Below, in pieces: positions 1 through 41,813 of a stretch of DNA of 64,000 nt (its first letter is position 1; each line of letters starts with the position of its first letter). The position numbers were made by a program, and so were the translations under genes. Source of the DNA: Minisyncoccia bacterium (GTDB taxonomy: Bacteria; Patescibacteriota; Minisyncoccia; Phycocordibacterales; UBA9973). The notes under the pieces are model-generated. The model did no database searches, was not told where the DNA came from, and worked only from the letters and a program-made list of their open reading frames with translations. The DNA is taken from contig JBGSSJ010000014.1 in assembly GCA_041737125.1 (NCBI GenBank), positions 68,375 to 132,374 on the forward strand, in the 5' to 3' direction.

Positions 1-565
1 GTCTTGGTATTTCAATTTGCTCAGTTCTTTTGGATCTTTGAGATTTATGATTTATTTCTTGCTCACGAATTGGTCTGTAAACAGAAAGTGCTTTACCAAT
101 TACACTACTCAAAACACTATTTACTTTTAAGAAATCATTTACGATGATGTGATAGATTTGTAATCGCTGTTCTTTAAGTAGCCCAAGAAGCCACACATTT
201 AAGGCGGTTTTTAATTTACCCCAAGAACGCTCTGGAGCAAACTTTTTATCCTCATCAATTTGTTTAGATATGATATTAAAACAGAAAAGATTATATAATC
301 TCTCTAAATCGTGCTGTGACATCTCTTGTTCATAACTGCTTCCCTCAGAAAGAAGCTCCTGCTTGAAATTATCATAGTCATCAATCTCAACATCAACAAT
401 AAGCCCATTTGTGACTTTTTTATCTAAAGAAAGTTTTTTATCATTAAACTTTTTTATAACATTTGCTTTTGTATCTTTTTCTATAATACCAAAATAATTA
501 TTTGCTACCTTTTTGAAAGTTTCTTGGAAGCTATCACCTAAATCGTTATAGTCAGTACGGCTCAT
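1..565 (-). CDS. hypothetical protein, partial (runs off window start); N-terminus MSRTDYNDLGDSFQETFKK
   Basis: Manual translation of the minus strand gives an open frame from ATG at 565..563 to the window edge with no stops. It is divergent from the 586..1806 ORF. Confidence 0.4.
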   Translation of the reverse strand, partial: MSRTDYNDLGDSFQETFKKVANNYFGIIEKDTKANVIKKFNDKKLSLDKKVTNGLIVDVEIDDYDNFKQELLSEGSSYEQEMSQHDLERLYNLFCFNIISKQIDEDKKFAPERSWGKLKTALNVWLLGLLKEQRLQIYHIIVNDFLKVNSVLSSVIGKALSVYRPIREQEINHKSQRSKRTEQIEIPR

Positions 566-585
566 AAACACTGAGTCAAGAACAA

Positions 586-1806
586 TTGGGTTCCTTGAAA
601 TACACCGACAACATAAAAATTACTATGGATACAGTTATTATTAAAATATATAGCCCTCATAATTTTAGGATTTCAAATTGGTCTTTATTTTTACCAGAAA
701 TTGTAAAAAGAAAATACGAAGATTTATCACCTACAGAGCGTTCGTCTACTCATCCCTATCTTAGACGATTTGTACTTCATCCTAAATCGCAAGAAGAGTA
801 TTTACCTCGTGTTGAGTTATTTGAAGCACTGACTGAAGACCGTAAAGATATACGTCATATTCTCAAGATTGAGTTTTCTGTCCCAAAGTTACTTTATTGG
901 AATAGTTTACAAGAAGCTGGAGAAAATGACGAGCAAAGAGTTTATTTATACTTAAAGTCAGCATTAGAAAGAGTTAGTATTTATGTAGAGATTGAAACAA
1001 TTAAAAACGCAACATTGTCATCAGTACACGCTTGTAAAAATATACCTCTACCTAAAACAATAAAAATGAGAGAAGTCATTAACGAACTTGCAAAGATGGA
1101 TATAAATAAAGCATTTGATATAAGTGATAAACAGTGCAAAAAAGGGGCTAGAGTTCTTAATATATATTCTGGGACGATAGATTGGTCTTTTTATGACAAG
1201 ATTTCTGACTCTCTTAGACCTAAGAATAAAAGAAGTGATAAAGGTCGTATAAATCAAGAAAGGGTTGTTATAGAAAGATATGGTTTACAGAATAGAGAGG
1301 TATTTCGTTATGAATACCGAATAAAGAAATCTCAAACAATCAAAAGAGAAATAAACGGTTTGCTTAATAGAAAATACGAAACTAAAGTTACTTTCAAAGA
1401 CCTATTTACTCCAAACTTATTAAAAACCCTAGTTCTTAATTCTTGGCATTCACTTATAGACCGACCTGAAAATCAATTGTCTCTTTTTAACACAATTGAT
1501 AAATTAGGACTTTTTCTGCATATATTGTCCGAAGCAAAAAAGAAGGGAGAAAAAGCTCACAGTATGAATAATGCTCTCATTTCATACGGATTAGCAACTG
1601 CCATAAGAGACCACGGAGTAAAGGAGGTTCGTGGAGCAATGTTTGATATATGGGATACAGACCATCCAGAAAGATTAACAAAGAAAATACGAACAGCTTC
1701 AGAACTAACCAAGGGCTTACCATATTCCAATAGTATCTCTTATCTTGATACAGCACTTAAAAGGTTTGAACTTATCAACTTAACTTCCTTGGAGAAAGGT
1801 ATATAA
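586..1806 (+). CDS. hypothetical protein (406 aa in ORF track; true start may be the internal Met near 625); cargo gene next to a serine recombinase
   Basis: Long uninterrupted ORF with no recognisable motif; lies immediately upstream of the recombinase gene. Confidence 0.45.
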   Translation: MGSLKYTDNIKITMDTVIIKIYSPHNFRISNWSLFLPEIVKRKYEDLSPTERSSTHPYLRRFVLHPKSQEEYLPRVELFEALTEDRKDIRHILKIEFSVPKLLYWNSLQEAGENDEQRVYLYLKSALERVSIYVEIETIKNATLSSVHACKNIPLPKTIKMREVINELAKMDINKAFDISDKQCKKGARVLNIYSGTIDWSFYDKISDSLRPKNKRSDKGRINQERVVIERYGLQNREVFRYEYRIKKSQTIKREINGLLNRKYETKVTFKDLFTPNLLKTLVLNSWHSLIDRPENQLSLFNTIDKLGLFLHILSEAKKKGEKAHSMNNALISYGLATAIRDHGVKEVRGAMFDIWDTDHPERLTKKIRTASELTKGLPYSNSISYLDTALKRFELINLTSLEKGI

Positions 1807-1947
1807 TGTATACATCTACCCGTTTTATGCAAAAGCATTTTTATTTAGACAACTTAATTGTTTTCTGTACAAATGGGCACCCTTGTCCGCTTTGCTTTTG
1901 CAAAATGGGTAGAGCAAGGTTGCCCTTTTGTGCCTTTATAAATAATT

Positions 1948-3591
1948 ATGGAAAATAAAAATACAATTAAATACTTTATCTATGCTCGTAAATCATCTGA
2001 GTCAGATGAAAAGCAAGTTCAATCTATTGATGACCAGATACTTGTTATGAATGGAATTGCAAAAAGTTATGGCTTTAAGATTGTAGATATTATTTCGGAG
2101 TCAAAATCAGCAAAAGAACCTCACGGACGACCAGAGTTTGAAAAAATGATTGAGCGTTTTCAAAAAGGTGAAGCACAGGGTGTACTTGTTTGGAAAATAG
2201 ACCGTCTCTCACGTAATCCAATAGATAGTGCAACTATTCAATGGTTTTTACAGAAAGGAGTTATTGCTTCAATTCGTACACCAGATAGAGAATACCGTCC
2301 AGAAGATAATGCTTTGCTTTTGAGTGTGGAGAGTAGTATGGCAAATCAATATATAAGAGATTTAAGTACAAATGTGAAGCGTGGTCTTAAAAGTAAACTA
2401 GAGAAAGGTTGGATGCCTTGTACTGCTCCACTTGGTTATTTGAATACAAAAACAGAAATACGGGGTGAGAATTATATTATTAAAGATACAGAACGTTTTG
2501 ATTTAATTCGTAAAGGTTGGGATTTATTACTTACTGGAAATTATAATGTAGTACAAGTAATGAGGAAACTTAATGAGTGGGGTTTTCGTACTAGAGCTTG
2601 GAAAAGGAGAGGTAACAAACCACTTGCTAAAAGCACTGTATATAAGATTTTTAATAACGTATTTTATGCTGGAATTATTCCGTATAAAGATTTATATGTT
2701 CAAGGCAAACACGACACAATGATTACTATTGAGGAGTTTGATAGAGTTCAAGTATTACTCGGTAAAAAAGGTAAGCCACGCCCACATAATTATGAATATG
2801 CTTATACAGGGCAAATAGTTTGTGGTGATTGTGGGGGTGTTGTTTCAGCTACATTCAAAGAAAAAATTATTAAGAAAACAAATAAACTCCAAAGTTATAT
2901 TTTGTATTATTGTATTTGTGCTCGTAAGCATAGTGATAAATGCCCAGACCAAAAACATTATACTAATTCAGATAAGATAGATGAAAAAATTGAGAAAGAA
3001 CTCATCTCCTTGACCATTTTACCAGAGTTCAAAGATTGGGCTCTTGCTATTATTGCTGAAAAGAATGATGAAGAAATTACAAACAGAACGAAGATTTATG
3101 AGACCCAACAAAAAGCTGTAAACGAAACACAGAAACAAATTGATAACCTCACACAACTACGTTTGAAAGATATGATAGATGATGATGAATATACGAAAGA
3201 AAAAACACGATTAAAAAATGAATTGGCTCTTTTAAGAACAAAGATGAAGGGTACAGAAGAAAGAGCTGATAATTGGCTAAAACTAACAGAACAAACATTT
3301 GAGTTCGCTTGTTATGCTCATAAGGCATTTATGTTTGGTGATATACAAACTAAGAGAGAAATACTAGGAACCATATCTCGTTTGAACTCAACATTAAAAG
3401 ACCACATACTCAATGTTACCAAAGTAGAATGGCTAGTACCCATAGAAAAACAGTATCCTTTGATAAAAGAGAAGTATGATGCGTTTGAACTGAAAAATAA
3501 GCATAACCCACAAAGACAAAAGGACGCTTTCGCGTCCTTGAGTCCCTTAATGCGCAGTCGAAGGGACTTGAACCCTCAACCTCCCACGTGA
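1948..3591 (+). CDS. large serine recombinase (resolvase/invertase-type catalytic domain, recombinase domain, zinc ribbon)
   Basis: N-terminal YARKSSESDEKQVQSIDDQ...VWKIDRLSRN serine-recombinase catalytic motif; CGDCGG Cys cluster; coiled-coil C-terminus. The 3' end reads through the antisense of tRNA-Asp. Confidence 0.85.
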   Translation: MENKNTIKYFIYARKSSESDEKQVQSIDDQILVMNGIAKSYGFKIVDIISESKSAKEPHGRPEFEKMIERFQKGEAQGVLVWKIDRLSRNPIDSATIQWFLQKGVIASIRTPDREYRPEDNALLLSVESSMANQYIRDLSTNVKRGLKSKLEKGWMPCTAPLGYLNTKTEIRGENYIIKDTERFDLIRKGWDLLLTGNYNVVQVMRKLNEWGFRTRAWKRRGNKPLAKSTVYKIFNNVFYAGIIPYKDLYVQGKHDTMITIEEFDRVQVLLGKKGKPRPHNYEYAYTGQIVCGDCGGVVSATFKEKIIKKTNKLQSYILYYCICARKHSDKCPDQKHYTNSDKIDEKIEKELISLTILPEFKDWALAIIAEKNDEEITNRTKIYETQQKAVNETQKQIDNLTQLRLKDMIDDDEYTKEKTRLKNELALLRTKMKGTEERADNWLKLTEQTFEFACYAHKAFMFGDIQTKREILGTISRLNSTLKDHILNVTKVEWLVPIEKQYPLIKEKYDAFELKNKHNPQRQKDAFASLSPLMRSRRDLNPQPPT

Positions 3592-3626
3592 CAGGCGGGT
3601 GCTCTAACCAGTTGAGCTACGACTGC
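3553..3626 (-). tRNA. tRNA-Asp (anticodon GTC)
   Basis: Manual cloverleaf: acceptor GCAGTCG/CGACTGC, D-arm GCTC..GAGC, anticodon loop CTGTCAC, T-arm GAGGG-TTCAAGT-CCCTT; CCA not encoded. Confidence 0.8.
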
Positions 3627-3671
3627 ATTTAATTTACTACTCAAGCCTAACTTAATTTACGAATATTGCCT

Positions 3672-3716
3672 AGGTGGGTGCTCGCTATATTCTAATTGAG
3701 TTGAGCTACGACTGCA
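3672..3716 (-). pseudogene. partial copy of the tRNA-Asp 5' half (acceptor 5' strand, D-arm and start of anticodon stem)
   Basis: The gggtgctc and agttgagctacgactgca blocks are identical to tRNA-Asp positions, but the D-loop is replaced and no 3' half is present. Confidence 0.4.
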
Positions 3717-3744
3717 AATTATTTTCCCGGCCAATTCCGGACTG

Positions 3745-4390: not shown

Positions 4391-4801
4391 TTGCGAATAT
4401 TAAAAATAAATTTTATGTACGTTTTAATTCCTAACCGAAAGGTGGATATCATATTTAAATGGAATAAGTTGGGATTTTCTCTGGAAGAAGATCTGGAACT
4501 TTTTAAAAGAGAAAATAGTTTCGAGGAGCCGGAAAGTTTAGGGCTTCAAAAAATTAATTTTTCATACTTGTATTTAGAGGGATTGACTCTTCCAGTATGT
4601 AGTATTTGGGGGCAAACTTTCCAAATATCCTACGGGGATGTAGTAGTCCCGGAAGAGTTCTTTCAAACTAATTATTTTGAAATGGATAAAATATATCCAG
4701 GGCAAATAGTTAGTCCCAACTATCAAAAATTCGTTCTAACAGAAGATTGGCGAAAAATTGATCCAGATCTAAAGATTGTTTATATTTTTAGACCTTCCTA
4801 A
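4391..4801 (+). CDS. hypothetical protein
   Basis: ORF only; no motif recognised. Confidence 0.3.
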   Translation: MRILKINFMYVLIPNRKVDIIFKWNKLGFSLEEDLELFKRENSFEEPESLGLQKINFSYLYLEGLTLPVCSIWGQTFQISYGDVVVPEEFFQTNYFEMDKIYPGQIVSPNYQKFVLTEDWRKIDPDLKIVYIFRPS

Positions 4802-4903
4802 TTGCCTGTACTTTAAAAAATTTAACAAGGCTGTACTCTACATGAGGCAGCCTTTTTGTTTGGAAATAAACTTTAATTATAGTATTATCAGCATTATCTG
4901 CAC

Positions 4904-4978
4904 GCCGTCGTAGCTTAGTGGTAAAGCACTGTCTTGGTAAGACAGAGACCATGAGTCCGATTCTCATCGACGGCTCCA
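4904..4978 (+). tRNA. tRNA-Thr (anticodon GGT), CCA encoded
   Basis: Acceptor GCCGTCG/CGACGGC, D-arm GCTT-AGTGGTA-AAGC, anticodon loop TTGGTAA, T-arm ATGAG-TCCGATT-CTCAT, followed by TCCA. Confidence 0.85.
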
Positions 4979-4984
4979 AAATAA

Positions 4985-5030
4985 AAGGCCTCTTCTTATA
5001 AAAGAAGGGGCCTTAAGGGTTTGTTTTTTT
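4985..5030. terminator. bidirectional rho-independent terminator
   Basis: AAGGCCTCTTCTT-ataaa-AAGAAGGGGCCTT hairpin followed by a T-run; sits between the tRNA-Thr gene and the convergent proC-like gene. Confidence 0.55.
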
Positions 5031-6033
5031 ATTGCCAGAGGGGTAGCGCGTAAGGTTTAATGCTTTGCCCAGAAAGATTATCCGAATTGTTTTTCCTTCT
5101 CCATTCATTAAAATCATTGTTTATTTTACGTTTCATTGATTTAACCTTCTTGTACATAGCATCAAATGCTTTTGAAAGTTTTTCAACAGAGAGTATATCC
5201 TCAAGTGAGTTACATAAGGTTAATCCTCTCTCTGTGCATCCACCAGGTGTAGCTACAATCTTAATATAATCTTCAAGCTTGTCGCACCCATCATCCATAC
5301 CAATAGAAAGACATAGGGTGTAGTAAGTACTATCGAAGCTTAATCGAGCTGTTTGATGAAAACCCGAGCCAAATATTTTTAAAGTTGCCTCCTTTTTGGC
5401 GGTTAAATATTTTTCTATCAGGCCTTGTCTTGATTTCAATTGTCTCAGAAATACACCAAATGATTTATCTCCCCCTTCTATTTCATATCGAAGTTTTATG
5501 TATTGGGAATCAAACGCTGCCATTGATGCACATAACACTATGTATTTTTCAATATCTCCAGTAGAAACATCGAGCATTACTTGGTGTTTTAATTGTGGAA
5601 AAATTTTTTTCATTAATGAGACCTGATCTTCTTTTATGGCTCGATAGCAAATAATCCCATAACCATAAGCAATGTTTACATTTACTGTCGCTTTAACAAC
5701 ACTCTCCTCTGATATTTTTATTATCCTAGAAATTATTGTGATGTTAAGTCCTGTTACAAAGCTTATAATCTTAGCATCAGGGTTTATTCTACCTCTAAGA
5801 TCAACCAAAAGATTTACAGCATCAACTGGCCTTACAGCCAAAATAATATGTTTATAATCCTTTAGGTCGGGTGAGTTAATTTCCAGATTCCTTGCGTCTG
5901 GATTTTGAGGGTTGAAGTAGTCACGTTTTACTACAAAAATGTTTTCTTTTTTGTAGCCTGCGTAATTTATCAAGCCTTGAACAATTTCTTTACCAAGTTT
6001 ACCGTTGCCAATGATGGCGATTTGCTTACTCAT
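5029..6033 (-). CDS. proC: pyrroline-5-carboxylate reductase-like NAD(P)-binding oxidoreductase with a C-terminal extension
   Basis: N-terminal Rossmann motif IAIIGNGKLGKEI and C-terminal ATPGGCTERGL motif typical of ProC. Confidence 0.5.
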   Translation of the reverse strand: MSKQIAIIGNGKLGKEIVQGLINYAGYKKENIFVVKRDYFNPQNPDARNLEINSPDLKDYKHIILAVRPVDAVNLLVDLRGRINPDAKIISFVTGLNITIISRIIKISEESVVKATVNVNIAYGYGIICYRAIKEDQVSLMKKIFPQLKHQVMLDVSTGDIEKYIVLCASMAAFDSQYIKLRYEIEGGDKSFGVFLRQLKSRQGLIEKYLTAKKEATLKIFGSGFHQTARLSFDSTYYTLCLSIGMDDGCDKLEDYIKIVATPGGCTERGLTLCNSLEDILSVEKLSKAFDAMYKKVKSMKRKINNDFNEWRRKNNSDNLSGQSIKPYALPLWQ

Positions 6034-6304
6034 TTTTTCAGCCTCCTCTGGCTGTGTTTATTTGATTTTTAATGAACAAAAAAGAGCCCCACATTATGTA
6101 GAGCTCTTTTTTATAATTTAATCTTAGAAGGAGAATTACATTACAAAAAACAACCCTACATGTTTGTTCCATGGAGTACAGAAGGGAGTGTTATATTTTT
6201 GTATGTTTCTCGACATATTTTTAATGTATCATACACGTTTTCATATTGCAACAGTTGTGATAATCTATGTTTATCAGTTGGTAGACCTGCCCGCCATCGC
6301 CTAA

Positions 6305-6377
6305 GCCCATGTAGCTCAATTAGTAGAGCATCGGTATCGTAAACCGAAGGTTAGGAGTGCAATTCTCCTCGTGGGCT
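6305..6377 (+). tRNA. tRNA-Thr (anticodon CGT) embedded between GC-rich inverted-repeat arms
   Basis: Acceptor GCCCATG/CGTGGGC, D-arm GCTC-AATTAGTA-GAGC, anticodon loop ATCGTAA, T-arm AGGAG-TGCAATT-CTCCT (atypical T-loop). Confidence 0.65.
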
Positions 6378-6448
6378 CAGGCGTAGGCAGGCGGGGCGAC
6401 CCCTTCGTAAGGGGTAGGTCCGCAGTTCGATTCTGCGAGGTGGCTCCA
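6378..6448 (+). pseudogene. 5'-truncated tRNA-like element (anticodon arm with CGT, canonical T-arm TTCGATT, acceptor 3' strand plus encoded CCA) lacking a matching 5' acceptor strand or D-arm
   Basis: ACCCC-TTCGTAA-GGGGT anticodon arm, CGCAG-TTCGATT-CTGCG T-arm, AGGTGGC-T-CCA. No GCCACCT partner found upstream. Confidence 0.35.
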
Positions 6449-6467
6449 TATTTGCTATACTAGTCTG

Positions 6468-7352
6468 ATGGATACAGAAGAAATAAAAAGAGAAATAGAC
6501 AAGCTAGAGGAGGAAATAACAGCTCCAGATTTCTGGAATAATAAATTAGAAGCACAAACTAAGATAAAGAAATTAGGGGAACTGAAAGACGCTTTACTTG
6601 GTAGTCAGAAGTATGACAAAGGTAATGCAGTACTCTCTATTTTATCTGGGGCAGGGGGTGATGATGCAGAGGACTTCTCCTCTATGCTTCTTACTATGTA
6701 TCTCAAATATATGGCAAGAAAAGGTTGGCAAGTGAATCTCATCCATGAGAATAAGAATGATGTGGGTGGCTTCCGCAACATATCTATAGAAGTCGCAGGG
6801 AAGAACGCTTATGGCACGCTGAAGAACGAGTCTGGAGTACATAGACTGGTACGTATATCACCATTTAATGCGAAGTCTCTTCGTCATACATCATTCTCTC
6901 TCGTAGAGGTGATACCGAAGCTCACAGTGAACGATAGTGTAATAGAAATACCACCCGAAGACATGAAGATCGAGTTCTCCAAGTCTGGAGGTCCAGGAGG
7001 CCAGAATGTCAACAAGAGGGAGACAGCAGTTCGCATAGTCCATATACCGACCAATCTATCCGTTCACGTCGCTACCGAGCGTTCCCAAGAGCAGAATCGC
7101 GAACGAGCGCTTGAAATGCTTAAAGGCAAGCTTTTTAAGAAGCGCCAAGAGGATGAGGCCAAGCTAAAAGCCGGTCTTTCTGTGTCTACGAAGTCAACCG
7201 AGATAGAGTGGGGCAGTCAGATTCGCTCATATGTACTCCATCCTTATAAACAAATAAAAGATCATAGGACCGATGTCGAAGTTCGTGATGTTGACAGCGT
7301 ACTTCTGGATGGTGAACTAGATGTCTTCATTGAAGCGGAAGCTCATTTGTGA
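6468..7352 (+). CDS. prfB: peptide chain release factor 2, short form (N-terminal domain reduced)
   Basis: SPF tripeptide motif (RISPFNAKSLRHTSF) and GGQ motif (GGQNVNKRETAVRIVHIPT); TGA stop. Confidence 0.85.
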   Translation: MDTEEIKREIDKLEEEITAPDFWNNKLEAQTKIKKLGELKDALLGSQKYDKGNAVLSILSGAGGDDAEDFSSMLLTMYLKYMARKGWQVNLIHENKNDVGGFRNISIEVAGKNAYGTLKNESGVHRLVRISPFNAKSLRHTSFSLVEVIPKLTVNDSVIEIPPEDMKIEFSKSGGPGGQNVNKRETAVRIVHIPTNLSVHVATERSQEQNRERALEMLKGKLFKKRQEDEAKLKAGLSVSTKSTEIEWGSQIRSYVLHPYKQIKDHRTDVEVRDVDSVLLDGELDVFIEAEAHL

Positions 7353-7368
7353 TATCCTTAGTAAGTAA

Positions 7369-8046
7369 ATGATTTATTTCAATAACGTCACAAAGAAATA
7401 TACGGACAGTATGTCACTTGATAATGTGACTATCTCTATATCTGCCGGTGAGTTTGTCGCTATTGTTGGTCACTCTGGTGCAGGGAAGACTACGTTGACG
7501 AAGCTTATCCTCGCTGAAGAGAATCCGACCGAAGGAACTATATTCTTTGAATCTACTGACATCCACAAGCTATCTAGTCGTGATCTGACTAACTTCCGTC
7601 GCAAGGTGGGTGTTGTTTTCCAAGATTTCCGCTTACTTTCGAATAAGACAGCATATGAGAATATAGCATTTGCCATGGAAGCTACGGGCAAAGACGATGA
7701 AGAAATAAGAGAAGACATACCGCATGTACTCGACCTTGTCGACTTATCTCATCGTGCTACACATTTCCCTCATCAACTCTCAGGTGGAGAGAAGCAGCGC
7801 CTCGCTATCGCCCGCGCAATTATTACACAGCCAGAGCTTATCATTGCGGATGAACCTACGGGCAATCTCGACCCAGTGAATGCCCATGAAGTTATAAATA
7901 TTCTAAAGAAGATTAATGATCTAGGTACTACTGTTATACTCACTACTCATAACCGCGCTATTATCGACTCACTGAAGAAGAGGGTAATTACTCTTGATAA
8001 TGGGAAAGTTATTAGAGATGATAAAGACGGCAAGTATGTGATATAA
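7369..8046 (+). CDS. ftsE: cell-division ABC ATPase FtsE
   Basis: Walker [13 protein letters not shown] signature LSGGEKQR, Walker [12 protein letters not shown]; followed by ftsX. Confidence 0.85.
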
Positions 8047-8054
8047 TAAATTTT

Positions 8055-8978
8055 ATGTTCTGGACCCACACCAAAAGAATTATACGCTCAGGATATCGCA
8101 GTTTCGTGCGTAGTGGCTTCACCTCTCTTTCTTCTATCCTTATGATGGTAATAACTCTATTTGTTATTACTAGCCTTATCTTTGTAAAAACTACACTAAC
8201 TACAGCCCTCGGTAATATAAAAGACAAAGTTGATGTCACTGTTTACTTTATTCCAGATGCGAATGAAGAAGTGATTACTGATATAAAGACGGGCCTCGAG
8301 AAGCTACCAGAAGTAAAAGAAGTTTCTTATACTTCTGCAGATGAAGCATTAGAATCTTTCCGTGCAAGGCATGCGAACGACTATCTCGCCCTTCAGTCTC
8401 TAGATGAGCTCGGTGATAATCCATTAGGTGCGACACTCAATGTCAAAGCCAAAGACCCTTCACAATACGAAGGTATTGCAAGCTACCTAGGTAATGGCGA
8501 CGCACTATCCAAGGGTGCACTTACTATTATAGACAAGATAGATTACCATCAGAATAAAGTAGTTATAGATAGACTTACTGCAATTATCGCCGGAGCTGAA
8601 CGTTTAGGCTTCGTTATATCATTGGTACTCGTAATAATATCTATTATCATTACATTCTCTACAATACGCCTGATTATATATATGTCTCGTGAAGAGATCG
8701 GTGTCATGCGCCTTGTTGGTGCAGGTACAAGGTATATACAGGGACCTTTCGTTGTATCCGGAATACTCGTTGGTATTAGTGCGAGTATTATAAACTTGCT
8801 TTTGTTCATCCCTATTTCTATTTGGCTAGGGAACAAAGTCACCGACTTCATAGGGCTCAACCTATTCACTTATTTTAAAGATAATTTCTTTCAATTATTT
8901 ATTATTATGCTTGGTTCTGGAATTATCCTTGGTGGTATATCTAGTGCCTTTGCTATTGCCCGCTATCTGAAGAAATAA
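8055..8978 (+). CDS. ftsX: cell-division permease-like protein FtsX
   Basis: N-terminal TM segment, large extracytoplasmic loop, three C-terminal TM helices; position after ftsE. Confidence 0.8.
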   Translation: MFWTHTKRIIRSGYRSFVRSGFTSLSSILMMVITLFVITSLIFVKTTLTTALGNIKDKVDVTVYFIPDANEEVITDIKTGLEKLPEVKEVSYTSADEALESFRARHANDYLALQSLDELGDNPLGATLNVKAKDPSQYEGIASYLGNGDALSKGALTIIDKIDYHQNKVVIDRLTAIIAGAERLGFVISLVLVIISIIITFSTIRLIIYMSREEIGVMRLVGAGTRYIQGPFVVSGILVGISASIINLLLFIPISIWLGNKVTDFIGLNLFTYFKDNFFQLFIIMLGSGIILGGISSAFAIARYLKK

Positions 8979-8980
8979 AA

Positions 8981-10663
8981 ATGAAGAAGACGAAACCAAT
9001 AATTCCAAAGGAAGAAAAACAATGCAAATATATCTTTGTTATCGGTGGAGTCATCTCTGGTGTAGGTAAAGGAGTCGCAGCTTCTTCTATTGCTCGTATT
9101 TTACAAGACAGGGGACAGAAGGTAACTGCCATAAAAGTAGATCCATATATAAACCTTGATGCAGGTACTATGAACCCGACTGAGCACGGCGAAGTCTTTG
9201 TTCTGGATGATGGAGATGAATGCGACCAAGATATGGGTAACTACGAGAGATTTCTAGGTATTAATCTCTCTCGCATAAATTACATGACCACGGGCCGTGT
9301 ATATCAGACTGTTATAGAGAAGGAGCGCAACCTAGAGTATGCGGGTAAGTGTGTAGAAGTTGTGCCTCATATACCGCTCGAAGTAATTCGTCGTATAGAG
9401 CTTGCTCGTGATAATGCAGGCGCTGATGTAGTCGTCATAGAGATAGGGGGTACTGTCGGTGAGTATCAGAATATGCTTTTCCTCGAAGCTGCTCGTATGA
9501 TGAAGATCAAGCACAGAAGAGATGTATTCTTCGTCATGGTGTCCTATCTTCCTATACCTAGTAAAGTAGGAGAAATGAAAACAAAGCCGACTCAGTACGC
9601 TGTGCGCACACTTAATGCTTCAGGAATTCAGCCAGACATTATAATCGCTCGTAGTGTCATGCCACTAGATGATAGGCGCAAAGAGAAGCTCTCAATGTTC
9701 TGTAATCTTCCACCTGAGAATATTATATCTGCGCCCGATGTAGATAGCATATATGACATACCACTGAACTTCGAGAAGGAAGGTCTAGGTGACATGATTT
9801 GTGATGTCGTCGATATGAAATGTGAACCTACAGGCGGGGAAGGCTATAATAAATGGCGCAAATTCGCGAAAGCCACTCACTCTGCGAAAGAGAATTTAAA
9901 TATAGCTATCATTGGTAAGTATTTTAATACTGGTGATTTTACTTTATCTGATTCATATCTATCTGTTATAGAAGCTGTAAAATACTCTGCTTATACCCAA
10001 GGCAGAAAACCAGTCCTCACATGGATATCAGCAGTAGATTACGAGAAAGATCCGAAGAAGCTTAAAGAACTTAGTAAATACGATGGCATAATTGTGCCGG
10101 GTGGGTTCGGTTCACGCGGAGTAGAGGGTCTTATAATGGCTGTATCTTACGCTCGCACAAACAAGATTCCATACTTTGGGCTTTGCTACGGCATGCAACT
10201 TATGGTTATAGAGTATGCTCGTAATGTTCTCAAATACAAAGATGCCAATACACGTGAGATAAATCCGAATGGTGATCACTTGGTTATAGATGTAATGGAA
10301 GACCAGAAAGATAAAATCGAGAATAAGAAGATGGGTGGTACTATGAGACTTGGTGCATATGATGCAGTCCTCAAAAAGGGAAGCATAGCATATAAATCTT
10401 ACGGTAAAGATTTGATATCCGAGCGTCATCGCCACCGCTATGAAGTAAGTAATGTTTATAGGAGTGATATAGAGAAAGCCGGACTCATATTCTCAGGGCT
10501 CTCACCTGATGGCCACTTAGCTGAGATAGCAGAGCTGCCTACATCTGTACATCCATTCTTCCTTGGCACACAATTCCACCCAGAGTTCAAAGCACGGCCT
10601 CTTGATCCACACCCACTTTTCTCTGCCTTTGTGAAAGCTTGTGTAATTAATAAAAAGAAATAG
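8981..10663 (+). CDS. pyrG: CTP synthase
   Basis: N-terminal synthetase motif FVIGGVISGVGKG and C-terminal glutamine amidotransferase motif GLCYGMQ. Confidence 0.9.
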   Translation: MKKTKPIIPKEEKQCKYIFVIGGVISGVGKGVAASSIARILQDRGQKVTAIKVDPYINLDAGTMNPTEHGEVFVLDDGDECDQDMGNYERFLGINLSRINYMTTGRVYQTVIEKERNLEYAGKCVEVVPHIPLEVIRRIELARDNAGADVVVIEIGGTVGEYQNMLFLEAARMMKIKHRRDVFFVMVSYLPIPSKVGEMKTKPTQYAVRTLNASGIQPDIIIARSVMPLDDRRKEKLSMFCNLPPENIISAPDVDSIYDIPLNFEKEGLGDMICDVVDMKCEPTGGEGYNKWRKFAKATHSAKENLNIAIIGKYFNTGDFTLSDSYLSVIEAVKYSAYTQGRKPVLTWISAVDYEKDPKKLKELSKYDGIIVPGGFGSRGVEGLIMAVSYARTNKIPYFGLCYGMQLMVIEYARNVLKYKDANTREINPNGDHLVIDVMEDQKDKIENKKMGGTMRLGAYDAVLKKGSIAYKSYGKDLISERHRHRYEVSNVYRSDIEKAGLIFSGLSPDGHLAEIAELPTSVHPFFLGTQFHPEFKARPLDPHPLFSAFVKACVINKKK

Positions 10664-11544: not shown

Positions 11545-11892
11545 TTAAGCTTTTCTAAGATCACGAATTGTACGTATTTTAGCCAGAACTATGGTAATTA
11601 TACATAGAACAGCGATAGTGCCGTTCATTATTGTTTCAGCCACAAATTTTTCTGTGTGACCTACGAAAACCATCCCTGTAAAAGCTAAAATCATAATAGC
11701 AAAATTAGTGATTCTTTCTTTCTCGAAAAGAATTCCTCTACCAGAGATAAAGATAACTGCTATATCCAGCAACCATCTAATAGCAGAAGAGTTGGAATGT
11801 GCATTATTCTTTTCTTGTTCGTGGAACAAGATAGCAATAGCTAATTCTAGGATTACCAATCCTAAAATTAAAAAATAATAATTTTTTTTCAT
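11545..11892 (-). CDS. small membrane protein, hypothetical
   Basis: Three hydrophobic helices; no motif recognised. Confidence 0.4.
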   Translation of the reverse strand: MKKNYYFLILGLVILELAIAILFHEQEKNNAHSNSSAIRWLLDIAVIFISGRGILFEKERITNFAIMILAFTGMVFVGHTEKFVAETIMNGTIAVLCIITIVLAKIRTIRDLRKA

Positions 11893-11983
11893 TTTTTCCC
11901 TAAACGGGTGTTTTATTTTTTTTCGAAATGTTCTTTGTCGGTTTTATTATAACCGATATGGCTCGCATTGTCAAGCAAAAAAA

Positions 11984-12066
11984 CTACACGTTTTTATGTT
12001 TTTTGTCGGCTTGTTTTTCGAGAATTTCTAGCTTTTTAGAGATTATTATCATTTCTTCTTTTATGT
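11984..12066 (-). pseudogene. ghost 3' gene fragment encoding ...IISKKLEILEKQADKKHKNV*, near-identical to the 3' end of the 15962..16411 gene
   Basis: About 60 bp matches 15986..16044 with roughly 5 mismatches. The minus-strand frame reproduces that gene's C-terminal peptide with its own stop, but there is no upstream coding body. Confidence 0.45.
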
Positions 12067-37977: not shown

Positions 37978-39300
37978 ATGGAAACGCAGTACATAAGTAA
38001 CCTTGGTGTTAAGACGGAGGTAATTCAAGCGAAAGTAAGATATGTCTTATACGCCAGAAAATCAACTGAATCTGATGAGAAGCAAGCCCTTTCGATTGAG
38101 TCTCAAGTAAAGGAGATGTTAACTATCGCAGATCGAGACGGTTTAACAGTCGTCGATATTAGGCGTGAATCTCATTCTGCAAAAGAGTCAGGGCAACGAC
38201 CAGTATTTAAAGAATTACTTGAGGATATTCGGCGAGGTAGATATACAGGAATTCTGACCTGGGCACCTGATCGTCTTTCTCGAAATGCCGGTGATCTTGG
38301 TTCAGTTGTTGACCTTATGGACGAAAACAAGCTTATAGAGATTAGGACATATGGACAACACTTTAAGAATTCACCAAACGAGAAGTTTCTTTTAATGATT
38401 TTATGCTCACAAGCAAAACTCGAGAACGATAATAAAAGTATCAATGTAAAACGAGGATTACGGACAAGATGTGAAATGGGGCTTCGCCCAGGTCCTGCAA
38501 TATTTGGATATTTAAACGAAAAGCATGTAGATAAAAAATGTGAAGTTATTATCGACACAGAGCGAGCACCTGTAGTTAAAAAGATATTTGAAAAAGTAGC
38601 ATATGAAAAATGGAGTGGGAGAAAAATATATCACTGGTTAAAGTTTGAGTTAAATCTAAAAACTCGTAACGGAAACAAAGGACTTACCCTCAGCAACATC
38701 TATATGATTTTAGAAAACCCCTTTTACTACGGGGTTTTTGAATATCCCAAGAAAAGTGGAAATTTTTATAAAGGTAGACACGAACCAATCATCACAAAAG
38801 AACTGTTTGATACTGTGCAAGAACAAGTTAAATCACAAACTCTTCGTACTCAAGAGCCAAAAGAATTCGCTTTTATTAAAATGATGAATTGTGGTCTTTG
38901 TGGATCAGGAATTACCGCAGAAGAAAAATTTAAGAAACTTAAAGACGGCAGCATAAACAGACATGTGTATTATGGCTGTGCCAAATCTAAGGATAGATTT
39001 TGTAAGTGTGGGTATATTAATGAGAATGATTTGATTCAACAATTTGAAAAACTAATTGATCAAATTGATATCAATGAAATTGGAATGAAAGAAAAAATTA
39101 AATACGAAGTTGAGCGAATTAAAAGATTTAACCATTCTGTATTAAATATAAAACAACAAATACAGATAAAAGATGTGGATGTAAGGGACTACGCCAAGTT
39201 TATTTTGAAAGATAGCTCGATTGAAGACAAGCGAGAATTACTCATGTGCTTTAAAAACAACATTTTGTTAGATAATAAAACTATTAGGTTGAGTTATTAA
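37978..39300 (+). CDS. large serine recombinase (paralog of 1948..3591)
   Basis: YVLYARKSTESDEKQALSIESQ...WAPDRLSRN catalytic domain and a Cys cluster CGLCGS...CAKSKDRFCKCG. Confidence 0.85.
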   Translation: METQYISNLGVKTEVIQAKVRYVLYARKSTESDEKQALSIESQVKEMLTIADRDGLTVVDIRRESHSAKESGQRPVFKELLEDIRRGRYTGILTWAPDRLSRNAGDLGSVVDLMDENKLIEIRTYGQHFKNSPNEKFLLMILCSQAKLENDNKSINVKRGLRTRCEMGLRPGPAIFGYLNEKHVDKKCEVIIDTERAPVVKKIFEKVAYEKWSGRKIYHWLKFELNLKTRNGNKGLTLSNIYMILENPFYYGVFEYPKKSGNFYKGRHEPIITKELFDTVQEQVKSQTLRTQEPKEFAFIKMMNCGLCGSGITAEEKFKKLKDGSINRHVYYGCAKSKDRFCKCGYINENDLIQQFEKLIDQIDINEIGMKEKIKYEVERIKRFNHSVLNIKQQIQIKDVDVRDYAKFILKDSSIEDKRELLMCFKNNILLDNKTIRLSY

Positions 39301-39379
39301 CAGTGTATTATCATAAAGCTTAGACTTTCGGTTTTATTTCGGATATAATTGAATTGTAGCAAATTAGATTTCTAAACAA

Positions 39380-40957
39380 ATGACCACACTAACCAAAAAA
39401 CAAAAAGAAGTATTTGATTATATAAGCACATATATCGCTGAAAATGGTATTTCTCCAACCATTGATCAGATTCGTAAAAAATTAAAGCTGAAGGCAGTCT
39501 CTACTGTTCATGAACATATCGCTTCCCTAAGAGAAAAAGGATACCTTTCAAAGTCAGATAGTACAGATCGAGGGATGACACCAAAAAAAGAAATCAAATC
39601 GGTAATTGAGATTCCTATAGTTGGTAAAATTGCTGCTGGTCAACCAATTGAGGCATTAGAAGATCATCAGGCTACTATTTCAATAATAAATCCCTCTATT
39701 AAGAGTGCTAAGGATCATTATGCTTTACGAGTAGTTGGTGACAGTATGATCGATGAAGGTATTTTTAATGGAGATATTGTGGTTATTAAAAAACAATCCG
39801 TAGCAGAGAATGGACAAACTGTTGTCGCGATTATTGACGATAACCAAGCAACCCTCAAAAAATTATATAAGGAGGATAAAAAAATAAGGCTACAGCCTGG
39901 AAATCCTGACATGAAGCCTTTGTTTAGAGTAGATGTTGAGATCAGAGGTGTTGTTGTTCAAGTTATAAGAAATATCGATAATGAAGCAGAAGTGTTACCT
40001 ACAAAGAAACAGAAGCATGGTTTTAGAACAATAGACTTATTTGCTGGAGTAGGAGGCATCCGAAAAGGATTTGAAAATGCAGGTTTTAAAACAGTCTTTG
40101 CAAATGATTTTGATGCCCCTTGTAAGCAGACATATGATTTGAATTTTAAAGATTCTAAATTAATAATTGAAGACATTAGAAAAATTGGTATCAATGATTT
40201 ACCAGAGTTTGACTTTATACTCGGAGGTTTTCCTTGTCAGGCATTTTCTATAGCAGGCTATCGCAAAGGCTTTGATGATCCTAAAAATAGAGGTAACCTG
40301 TTTTTTGATATTGCGAAGATTATTGAAGCAAGAAAACCAGCAGGCTTCATGTTGGAAAATGTTAAAAATCTAAAAAGCCATGATGATGGAAATACTTTTA
40401 GAATTATCGAAGAGACCCTCAGAGATCTTGGTTACCATGTAAAATCCAAAGTACTAAACACTATGGAATATGGAAATGTTCCCCAAAATCGTGAGAGAAT
40501 TTATATTGTAGGATTTAGAAATAAAGATTACTTTGATAGGTTTAACTTTCCAGAACCAGTAAAACTCACAAAAAAAATAACAGATCTCTTAGAGAAAAAT
40601 GTTCCTGAAAAATACTATTACAATGGCAAACCTCTTTTTGATAAATTAAAGAAAGACGTAAAAGAAGAAGGTAAGGTATACCAATGGCGAAGGCAATATG
40701 TTCGCGAAAATAAAAGTGGGGTTTGCCCTACTCTCACAGCAAATATGGGAATGGGTGGACACAATGTACCAATTATCAAAGATAAGAAAGGTATCAGAAA
40801 ACTTACGCCATTAGAGTGCTTTAGAATACAAGGATTTCCTGCAACTTATATTTTACCCAAGATCGCAGACTCTTCTTTGTATAAACAAGCTGGCAATTCA
40901 GTTAGTGTCCCTGTTATTGAAGCCGTTGCTAAAAAAATGATGGAGGCAATGAAGTAG
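39380..40957 (+). CDS. fusion of a full-length LexA repressor (wHTH plus S24 autopeptidase) to a cytosine-5 DNA methyltransferase
   Basis: LexA part: LTKKQKEVFDYI, cleavage site KIAAGQP, VGDSM Ser, TLKKL Lys. MTase part: motif I DLFAGVGG, motif IV GFPCQAFS (PCQ), ENV, C-terminal QAGNSVSVPV. Confidence 0.85.
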   Translation: MTTLTKKQKEVFDYISTYIAENGISPTIDQIRKKLKLKAVSTVHEHIASLREKGYLSKSDSTDRGMTPKKEIKSVIEIPIVGKIAAGQPIEALEDHQATISIINPSIKSAKDHYALRVVGDSMIDEGIFNGDIVVIKKQSVAENGQTVVAIIDDNQATLKKLYKEDKKIRLQPGNPDMKPLFRVDVEIRGVVVQVIRNIDNEAEVLPTKKQKHGFRTIDLFAGVGGIRKGFENAGFKTVFANDFDAPCKQTYDLNFKDSKLIIEDIRKIGINDLPEFDFILGGFPCQAFSIAGYRKGFDDPKNRGNLFFDIAKIIEARKPAGFMLENVKNLKSHDDGNTFRIIEETLRDLGYHVKSKVLNTMEYGNVPQNRERIYIVGFRNKDYFDRFNFPEPVKLTKKITDLLEKNVPEKYYYNGKPLFDKLKKDVKEEGKVYQWRRQYVRENKSGVCPTLTANMGMGGHNVPIIKDKKGIRKLTPLECFRIQGFPATYILPKIADSSLYKQAGNSVSVPVIEAVAKKMMEAMK

Positions 40958-40959
40958 GG

Positions 40960-41523
40960 TTACCAAACCTTTACATCAGTCGCGATTGGCTTAAGGTCAT
41001 ATTTTGCAATCACATCTTTTTTGATACAAAATCTAGGTCGTCTCTTTTCTTCTTGTTGCTGTTTTAGCGTTTGAAGTTTATTGACCGGGTTATCATAGAT
41101 AAAATTATTAGGTATTTTATATACCTTAAAAGTTCCGTCGACTCTGCCGTCAGCATAAAAATCTAAAAAATATAAATCGTCCCACTTAGATTTTGGACCA
41201 AAAGAAGTAAGATCATTTTCTACACTACAAGCTTTGATTTGTTCTGCTCTCTTTGTTTTAGTATTAAACGTATCAAATGATGTATTAGAAAGTTTTTTAG
41301 CACTTATTAATCTTGTGGATCCAGACCATAAACAAAAAGCAACCTCAGATAATCCTTCAGGAAAATTTGGTTCACGCGATTTATAATCACGCATTCCCAT
41401 CTTTAATCCTTTCCATAGATCAAATAGTGTTTTCCATTTTTTTCCATCAGAAGAATCAAACTCCATTAGATCAACGGTGCAGTCTTCATCAAAAATAGTA
41501 GTGTTTACTTTAACTAAGTTCAT
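40960..41523 (-). CDS. putative type II restriction endonuclease partner of the C5-MTase (small, possibly Bsp6I-like)
   Basis: Convergent with only a 3-bp gap to the C5-MTase gene; 187 aa with acidic/Lys clusters compatible with a PD-(D/E)xK enzyme. The call rests on context only. Confidence 0.35.
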   Translation of the reverse strand: MNLVKVNTTIFDEDCTVDLMEFDSSDGKKWKTLFDLWKGLKMGMRDYKSREPNFPEGLSEVAFCLWSGSTRLISAKKLSNTSFDTFNTKTKRAEQIKACSVENDLTSFGPKSKWDDLYFLDFYADGRVDGTFKVYKIPNNFIYDNPVNKLQTLKQQQEEKRRPRFCIKKDVIAKYDLKPIATDVKVW

Positions 41524-41628
41524 GATGTATTTATACTATATTTTTATCAATTTCTCAAACAAAAACACCTTTTTAATTAAAGGTGTTTTTGTTTTAAAAC
41601 TAGCTATCTTTGAGCTAGCTCTTGTTTG

Positions 41629-41728
41629 CTGCCAGACCTGGACTCGAACCAAGGAAGTGTCCTACCCGCCCGCCATTGCAAGCATGAGCTTGCTCAGGCG
41701 TTGCGGGCGGGCCATTAGACGATCACTG
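41629..41728 (-). pseudogene. degenerate tRNA-Gln paralog: T-arm and acceptor 3' strand intact, anticodon arm deleted, 47-nt GC-rich palindrome inserted in the D-loop, 5' acceptor mutated
   Basis: Aligns base-for-base with tRNA-Gln at 41743..41813 except for the missing anticodon arm and the inserted CCCGCCCGCC...GCGGGCGGG hairpin (41665..41711). Confidence 0.45.
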
Positions 41729-41742
41729 ATTTCTGCACAAAG

Positions 41743-41813
41743 CTGCCAGACCTGGACTCGAACCAAGATAACCTCCTCCAGAGGGAGGTGTCCTACCATT
41801 AGACGATCTGGCA
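41743..41813 (-). tRNA. tRNA-Gln (anticodon CTG)
   Basis: Acceptor TGCCAGA/TCTGGCA, D-arm GTCT-AATGGTA-GGAC, anticodon arm CCTCC-CTCTGGA-GGAGG, T-arm CTTGG-TTCGAGT-CCAGG. Confidence 0.8.

Follow-up and report, generated by a model that had tools for sequence, protein, structure and literature searches.

When large DNA is to be inserted into genomes, the main tools are large serine integrases, and how they choose site and direction is under active study. Classic members are described as having protein-coding genes for targets; they keep attP outside the integrase open reading frame (ORF) and exchange strands at a 2-bp overlap, duplicating nothing. In integrases of the SSV1 type, from archaeal fuselloviruses, a tRNA gene is targeted, and because attP lies within the ORF of the integrase, that gene is partitioned upon integration; the SSV1 enzyme is a tyrosine recombinase, and the split takes away a large part of the protein. 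The element pSAM2 has the gene order rep-xis-int and replicates by the rolling-circle mode. Together with SLP1 it belongs to the integrative and conjugative elements of actinomycetes (AICEs), which measure ∼10 kb, carry attP directly downstream of int and use as attB the 3′-end of a tRNA gene that stays functional (PMC2440964). In the mycobacteriophages BPs, Brujita and Charlie, attP is located in the repressor ORF, and integration at a tRNA 3′-end by a tyrosine integrase removes an ssrA-like degradation tag from the repressor and so alters its behavior (PMC4557955). A survey of 6,207 large serine recombinases grouped their targets by protein-coding genes, and the word ‘tRNA’ does not occur in its main text (PMC10083194). 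Our literature searches returned no description of a serine integrase with attP in its own ORF and a tRNA 3′-end as its target. Here we analyze a 64,000-nt stretch of a contig from an uncultured Minisyncoccia bacterium (JBGSSJ010000014.1, assembly GCA_041737125.1; hereafter the window), near the start of which a large serine integrase gene runs into a tRNA-Asp gene. This junction probably marks the end of an integrated element whose integrase gene spans attP and exchanges its C-terminal tail upon integration.

The integrase ORF (1948..3591, plus strand, 547 aa) continues without an in-frame stop into an intact tRNA-Asp gene on the minus strand, located at 3552..3626 by ARAGORN and at 3553..3626 by the Rfam tRNA model RF00005 (68.8 bits versus a gathering score of 29). 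The tRNA has a full cloverleaf with a GTC anticodon. The two genes overlap by 40 nt, from one base of M535 through codons R536-T547 to the stop, such that the last 12 codons and the stop of the integrase are antisense to tRNA-Asp. The initial annotation had described the last ∼13 codons in this way, and our ARAGORN and ORF scans bear it out; a recombinase stop upstream of the tRNA, which it had named as grounds for giving up its reading, does not exist. The element-encoded part of the protein ends with R536 (3555), while codons 537–547 and the stop come from the antisense strand of the tRNA. The protein matches Pfam PF00239 Resolvase above the cut-off (E 2.4e-20, residues 10–154) and PF07508 Recombinase (29.9 bits, cut-off 21.1), with PF13408 Zn_ribbon_recom slightly below its cut-off (21.5 bits versus 25.3), a domain that is precomputed for most of the homologues. 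Across 47 homologues, Y12, the residues R14, S16, Q23, R86 and R89, of the serine-recombinase active-site type, and the zinc-ribbon cysteines C292, C295, C322 and C332 are invariant. By its domains and the geometry of its att sites, it is a bona fide large serine integrase. The GC content over 1..3000 is ∼32–33%, compared with ∼40% across most of the window.

A protein search returned >3500 homologues of this integrase, and most of their C-termini read R-[GSE]-R-x-D-[LS]-N-[PR]-x-x-x-x, which is the coding of antisense acceptor and T arms. We fetched 90 loci carrying relatives of the window integrase (given L-numbers below) and classed their junctions by testing the overlap between integrase stop and tRNA. 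The integrase stop was reached in 81 loci, and in 59 of these it lies inside an antisense tRNA gene, with overlaps of 10–109 nt and ten amino-acid identities represented (Asp 15, His 11, Asn 9, Ser 7, Trp 5, Gln 3, Glu 3, Lys 3, Arg 2, Val 1). A further seven stop <75 nt from a contig end, five were classed as long-tail and ten remained unclassified, several of them with DSNP-type tails and some with variant long tails. The same junction codon recurs in the 59 tRNA-ended loci at 45–83% protein identity to the window integrase, and junctions with tRNA-Asp like that of the window are found in L001–L004, L007, L060, L067, L074, L079 and L093. The source names attached to homologues of the integrase, of the RF2 protein and of the replication protein discussed below point to Patescibacteria, the Candidate Phyla Radiation (CPR), including Paceibacterota, Parcubacteria, Taylorbacteria and Nomurabacteria; L007 belongs to a Saccharibacteria metagenome-assembled genome. 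Scanning IMG/VR gave only four distant relatives, and therefore these are not typical phage integrases. In L012, a fragment resembling a tRNA acceptor and T arm without the 5′ half (11591..11635, GCGCGTCTGGATTCGAACCAGAGACC...) lies between the junction and tRNA-Val, and the integrase ORF passes through it into tRNA-Val, acquiring a 28-aa tail.

Among the 120 top matches, 20 homologues diverge at this same codon into a conserved tail beginning A-L-V-D-A-V-G-T..., with a consensus of ∼25–45 aa ([AG]-L-V-D-x-V-[GR]-T ... Y-I-[YF]-I-P-D-L). These long-tail proteins are interleaved with tRNA-ended ones when ranked by identity to the window integrase (76% tRNA-ended, 74% long-tail, 74% tRNA-ended). 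At the DNA level, the junction codon of long-tail relatives is followed by GCCCTAGTGGACGCTGTTGGAAC; in L005 and L006, whose integrases are 74% and 57% identical to that of the window and have no tRNA at the 3′-end of the gene, the junction codon CGC is followed by the nucleotide-conserved GCCCT(A/C)GTGGACGCTGTTGGAAC. In L006, L098 and L099, the long-tail integrase has genes of plasmid or conjugation type on both sides (TrwB coupling protein, ArdC, PemK, S24 repressor, methylases), with no tRNA and no housekeeping genes. We read the long-tail copies as the attP configuration. The contig of L006, 74 kb long and plasmid-like, also carries a second, orphan tail (ALVDAVGTNIRQCVGNLVIP...) at 13422 on the plus strand, 1.7 kb downstream of the intact long-tail integrase, perhaps left behind when two related elements recombined.

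In a number of integrated relatives, the tail is found at the other end of the element. In L001, the 23-mer that follows CGC in L005 and L006 occurs once (one mismatch, zero expected by chance), 6.9 kb upstream of the integrase/tRNA junction and on the same strand. It is preceded by TTTTTGCGC and the orphan tail reads in frame ALVDSVGTKIREHQGYIFIADLKDKVPN up to a stop, while the junction itself reads TTATTGCGC and then AGTCG; attL and attR thus have the core TTGCGC in common, the tail begins directly after it, and excision would rebuild a long-tail ORF. A tail hidden Markov model located orphan tails in 12 integrated loci. In every case the tail is on the strand of the integrase and lies 6.6–11 kb upstream. 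The cores shared by attL and attR in relatives are 5–8 nt long and consist of the last bases of the respective tRNAs, not of the tRNA body: TGGCTCC in L083 (CCA, discriminator and three acceptor bases), GGGGTGCC in L058 and CTGGG in L052. The cores of L012, L026 and L037 were read by eye. By comparison with these pairs, the crossover in the window maps to within TGCGC (3551..3555), which comprises the end of the acceptor stem, the discriminator and the first trailer base. A crossover at the last bases of the tRNA means that tRNA-Asp stays whole and chromosomal. The integration junction of a serine-recombinase element at tRNA-Asp that the initial annotation proposed is therefore supported by the overlap, the family-wide junctions and the shared cores. 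Its placement of the crossover in the tRNA stands as far as the 3′-end is concerned, and fails for the tRNA body, where no attL/attR pair of the relatives puts it.

The tail motif Y-I-[YF]-I-P-[DNS]-[LF] lies 17–22 codons (∼50–65 nt) past the junction, outside a 25-bp half-site, and is kept in attached and orphan tails alike. As judged from this conservation, the tail is a protein feature and presumably has a function. An ssrA-like degron was considered and rejected as a general explanation: endings in ..LAA, ..VAA or ..KAA occur in some tails and are missing from most orphan ones.

In LI integrase, the zinc-ribbon motif occupies positions 16–24 of the attP half-site and lies 5 bp nearer to the center in attB (Rutherford et al., PMC3783163). 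In the window, attL extends over 3527..3580, with a P arm (∼3527..3551) in the integrase ORF, the core TGCGC, and a B′ arm (3556..3580) formed by the acceptor and T arm of tRNA-Asp, in which GGAC (3564..3567) is followed by the T-loop TTGAAC (3568..3573). Measured by script for L001, L058 and L068, GAAC lies 14, 11 and 13 nt past the core on the tRNA (B′) side, and 19, 16 and 18 nt past it in their tail (P′) arms. The same 5-bp shift was seen by eye in L012, L026 and L052, and GAAC stands at +14 in the B′ arm of the window and at +19 in the attP sites of L005, L006 and L009. The motif is provided in B′ by the T-loop of the tRNA (TTCGAAC or TTGAAC) and in P′ by the V-[GR]-T codons (GTTAGAAC or GTTGGAAC). 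The offset is the attP/attB shift of the zinc-ribbon motif described for LI integrase. We also read GGAC at positions 9–12 of the P, P′ and B′ arms in the Asp group. A universal T-loop anchor combined with a variable acceptor-stem part would explain the spread of the family over many tRNAs.

Taken together, we favor, with a probability of roughly 0.8, the reading that window positions 1..3555 are the right part of an integrated element bearing a replication (Rep) gene and an integrase gene, here called a Rep-int element, and that the integrase ORF in the window is the integrated, tail-swapped form of a longer gene spanning attP. This reading builds on what the loci show directly: the overlap and its recurrence as a junction across the family, orphan tails and shared cores, the offset of 5 bp, the hairpins, and the fold of Rep. 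In the free circle, the integrase ORF would run past R536 into the conserved tail. Integration would then join attP to an attB straddling the 3′-end of tRNA-Asp, with crossover within TGCGC; the tail would end up orphaned at the opposite (left) end of the element, and the integrase would finish in 11 tRNA-templated codons, SRRDLNPQPPT. The tRNA-Asp gene would remain intact and its T-loop TTGAAC would serve as the zinc-ribbon-domain motif of the B′ half-site, a motif that the V-[GR]-T codons would mimic 5 bp further out in P′. Finally, a terminator hairpin on the strand opposite the last element-encoded codons would take over from the displaced terminator of the tRNA.

An intrinsic-terminator-like hairpin with a T-run is found by the terminator scan on the minus strand at 3510..3539. 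It starts 13 nt past the 3′-end of tRNA-Asp, antisense within the integrase codons QKDAFASL, and has an 8-bp stem (3539..3520, AAGGACGC-GAAA-GCGTCCTT) followed by TTGTCTTTGT. Across 53 non-redundant junction loci, the equivalent 50 nt fold at a mean z of −3.2 versus mononucleotide shuffles, into stems of 8–14 bp that differ in sequence and are then followed by T-runs. The tRNA thus appears to receive from the element a new terminator in place of the displaced one, and an antisense terminator at this position would also shield the integrase from antisense read-through.

Signs of excision are indirect. Many contigs end within 100 nt of the integrase stop, and among contigs from sibling samples L002 starts 55 nt before attR and L003 ends 14 nt after the integrase stop. 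In L076, the last 17 nt of the contig run from the integrase into the tail, and the same tail is also present at position 2260. These breaks and the end of L076 fit the assembly of a mixture of integrated and excised forms, in which excision would rebuild the long ORF. Several points weigh against the reading we favor. All of its support is comparative, with no recombination event observed. A terminal-overlap test for circular contigs was negative in 16 contigs, giving no closed circle, and no empty attB was recovered, although no search aimed at one was made. Three loci (L037, L082 and L090) fit poorly, and the P arm has the GGAC motif without a clear zinc-ribbon motif. The dyad GAGTCC-N18-GGACTC of the rebuilt L001 attP centers on a palindromic GC; a palindromic crossover dinucleotide would not fix orientation, and for that reason we give the shared core of 5–8 nt rather than an exact dinucleotide. 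Lastly, attR and the tail of this copy are not seen within the window, and the copy could be a fixed remnant. The P′/tail motif has no occurrence in the whole 64-kb window, which would place attR and the tail of this copy to the left of position 1, in agreement with the earlier statement that the element body, with the 406-aa gene described below and a divergent gene, runs out of the window on that side.

That last circumstance would also suit a coincidence, in which an integrase that lost or lacks a stop merely reads into a neighboring tRNA and either has its att site in another place or is a domesticated or immobile remnant. At the protein level, the tRNA-templated tail itself is not conserved, and a second serine recombinase in the window (37978..39300) looks truncated and immobile. 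We nevertheless consider a coincidence unlikely, given that the junction codon recurs in 59 loci across ten tRNA identities at 45–83% protein identity, that orphan tails share cores with the junctions and that the 5-bp motif shift holds. On these comparisons chance is already refuted for the family; the window copy by itself could be an immobile remnant.

Two further explanations arise from a second piece of tRNA beside the junction. At 3672..3716 on the minus strand is a degenerate copy of the 5′ half of tRNA-Asp, consisting of the acceptor 5′ strand, the D arm and the 5′ strand of the anticodon stem. The initial annotation had pointed it out, and both alignment and a repeat family (D1) confirm it: tRNA positions 1–17 are exact and positions 22–34 match at 12/13, the D-loop region holds ∼10 extra bases, and the match breaks off precisely at the anticodon loop. 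The 26-nt repeat of family D1 takes in 9 nt of upstream flank, which supports a real duplication over a chance match. If the crossover were in the tRNA body, with the element supplying the 3′ part of the tRNA, this partial 5′ copy would be the scar of earlier cycles, as the annotation had suggested. The integrase ORF does overlap the 3′ part of the tRNA, and the anticodon loop at which the relic ends is a classic crossover position of tyrosine integrases. This explanation is very unlikely, because the attL/attR cores of relatives sit at the last 5–8 nt of the tRNA, free-form integrases have no tRNA sequence past the junction codon, and serine integrases duplicate nothing. Moreover, of the 41 junction loci whose flanks are long enough, the window alone has a relic of the target tRNA beside the junction; L001, L007 and L093 lack it, the last being 95.5% identical to window 588..3629 and diverging right after the tRNA. 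Alternatively, the intact tRNA-Asp could be element-borne, brought in by insertion into the anticodon loop of a chromosomal tRNA-Asp whose 5′ half was left at 3672..3716. The order of relic 5′ half, 45-nt spacer, whole tRNA and integrase would agree with this, and the relic has decayed, by its D-loop insertion, like an unselected fragment. We regard it as the least likely of these possibilities: no tRNA follows the integrase in relatives of the long-tail (attP-state) kind, the L001 tail follows directly after the core, which puts the tRNA on the chromosomal side, and L001 and L007 share the conserved tRNA-Asp/Met/Met cluster but have no relic. The copy is best treated as a lineage-specific partial duplication that is not a product of the integration mechanism.

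Other observations concern this relic and its like. A promoter-like match (TTTGCA-18-TAGAAT, 9/12) lies over the relic at 3689..3718 on the minus strand, with its −10-like hexamer in the extra D-loop bases. Promoter-like matches in the region number 13 versus 8.8 expected, and the suggestion that the relic might now act as a tRNA-Asp promoter is a weak one. Beside attR in L001, at 4650..4706 on the plus strand, there is an inverted relic of the 3′ part of tRNA-Asp (GTTCAAGTCCCTT, a 25-nt hairpin insert, CGACTGCGC), and beyond the tRNA-Met pair of that locus a 54-nt duplicate of the 5′ part of tRNA-Met with flank (11945..11998). Relative to L001, the window segment comprising the element and tRNA-Asp/Met/Met is inverted with respect to tRNA-Thr/RF2/FtsE.

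Within the favored reading, the element would replicate as a circle, and a candidate for its replication protein lies directly upstream of the integrase. The gene at 586..1806 (plus strand) encodes 406 aa from TTG 586, or 393 aa from ATG 625, and the protein has the Rep_trans fold, a fold of rolling-circle Rep proteins; it is a probable rolling-circle replication initiator of the element and would replicate the circle. The protein itself has no Pfam or PHROGs match, one of 49 homologues hits PF05144 (4e-5), and a PDB profile search gave spurious uS4 matches only. Residues Y190 and Y229 are invariant and Y231 is nearly so. Compared with the Rep_trans/G2P initiators (pT181 RepC/RepD, RepSTK1), it stands at 10–12% identity, lacks a Pfam Rep_trans match and has an extra C-terminal helical domain of ∼150 aa. 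Besides the window, 15 of the fetched loci have a homologue of this Rep directly upstream of the integrase, the targets being Asp, His or Arg tRNAs. L093 is 95.5% identical to the window over 588..3629 and different on both sides, which defines Rep-int as a module with changing cargo.

Between the two genes lies a conserved non-coding spacer (1807..1947, plus strand) with a long imperfect hairpin (1875..1925) and a T-run. It is more conserved in its nucleotides than the flanking proteins are, pairing persists after changes on both sides at 6 of 23 predicted pairs, and terminator-like matches occur at 1874..1889 and 1907..1925. The spacer may be an origin, a terminator or a regulatory element, and the 50-aa ORF at 1806..1958, which overlaps this structured and conserved sequence, is probably not a gene. 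L001 has a different, 63-aa ORF (9806..9997) ahead of the integrase that is absent from the window.

On the other side of the Rep gene, the window edge cuts a cargo ORF (2..565, minus strand, 188 aa visible) with no Pfam or PHROGs match. It shows no homology with the L001 gene in the same place, which led us to drop the idea that it is the target gene of the L001 diversity-generating retroelement (DGR), and L092 and L093 have other genes there. L001 carries a full DGR as cargo (4828..8362), so that DGRs ride on tRNA-targeting Rep-int elements. This DGR includes a 284-aa phrog_8036 protein, a reverse transcriptase and bAvd, with the template repeat (TR) at 7139..7270. A target gene of 248 aa carries the variable repeat (VR, 7629..7760) at its 3′-end; TR and VR are 89% identical. 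No transfer gene was recognized by Pfam or PHROGs in window 1..3600, where the element is cut by the window edge.

Elsewhere in the window, a second island (37978..41813) may be a decayed element of the same kind. Its 440-aa serine recombinase (37978..39300) is 34% identical to the window integrase over the N-terminal 350 aa and has a shorter C-terminus. It is followed by a LexA/S24-C5 cytosine methylase fusion (39380..40957), a Bsp6I-like restriction enzyme (40960..41523, minus strand) and a tRNA-Gln(CTG) (41742..41813), a tRNA that relatives in L008 and L045 target. We rejected the same kind of junction for the second recombinase, as no ORF runs into tRNA-Gln and the protein is a shorter paralogue. 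The real tRNA-Gln has a degenerate copy 11 nt away from it (41626..41730, minus strand), with the acceptor 3′ strand and T arm intact, the anticodon arm missing and a 45-nt GC-rich hairpin (CGCCCGCC...GGCGGGCGGG) inserted near the D arm. This makes two tRNA relics beside islands in the window.

The arrangement allows a tentative proposal, which goes well beyond the junction itself: the tail swap could be a built-in state sensor of the serine integrase, together with a retargeting scheme in which the T-loop is the fixed anchor and the inner half-site follows the acceptor stem. If so, the free form with its Y-I-Y-I-P-D-L tail and the prophage form with its tRNA-templated stub would differ in activity, stability or directionality, such that the integration state would set the behavior of the recombinase without, or beside, a separate directionality factor, and the family would offer a natural modular targeting scheme for large serine integrases. 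Whatever the fate of this proposal, relatives at 45–83% identity target the 3′-ends of tRNAs of at least ten identities and appear to use the universal T-loop as a recognition motif. With attP in its own coding sequence, the enzyme would differ between the free and integrated states, and ∼60 bp would pack three codes: protein, att half-site and antisense terminator for the tRNA. This makes two questions testable, namely directionality by C-terminal swap and the evolutionary re-tuning of target specificity. The Rep-int element is also a common small mobile element of CPR bacteria, whose mobilome is poorly known, with some copies carrying DGRs. For annotation, the C-termini that databases give for these integrases are partly tRNA antisense, and the full-length protein would exist only in the excised state.

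Comparison with known systems places the enzyme among the canonical large serine integrases and its integration logic nearer to that of other systems. With LI/A118, Bxb1, phiC31, TP901-1 and SPbeta SprA, it shares the set of resolvase, recombinase and zinc-ribbon domains and short att sites with half-site motifs; as in the canonical enzymes, the same distal motif lies 5 bp nearer to the center in attB than in attP (PMC3783163). Unlike in those enzymes, here the target is a tRNA 3′-end, the T-loop is the distal motif and attP falls in the last codons of the enzyme. The tRNA 3′-end target and the attP within its own ORF set it apart from the characterized large serine integrases. The AICEs are similar in their small size (∼10 kb) and in their layout, with a Rep-like gene (586..1806), an integrase (1948..3591), attP at the end of int and an intact tRNA-Asp. 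They use a tyrosine integrase, long identity segments and transfer genes, whereas the window element has a serine integrase, a shared core of 5–8 nt and a CPR host. Like BPs, the family has attP in an ORF, and integration at a tRNA 3′-end changes the C-terminus of a protein; in contrast to BPs, the split gene is the integrase and not the repressor, and a degron role for the tail is unsupported, with only a minority ending in ..LAA, ..VAA or ..KAA. As in SSV1, attP lies in the integrase ORF, the target is a tRNA and the gene is partitioned, as the long-tail and tRNA-ended homologues and the orphan tails indicate. The enzyme is nonetheless a bacterial serine recombinase without a tyrosine recombinase fold, and the family loses only a C-terminal tail of 25–45 aa while the catalytic and DNA-binding domains are kept. 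By analogy, the closest counterparts in logic are therefore the SSV1-type tyrosine integrases and the integration-dependent immunity of BPs.

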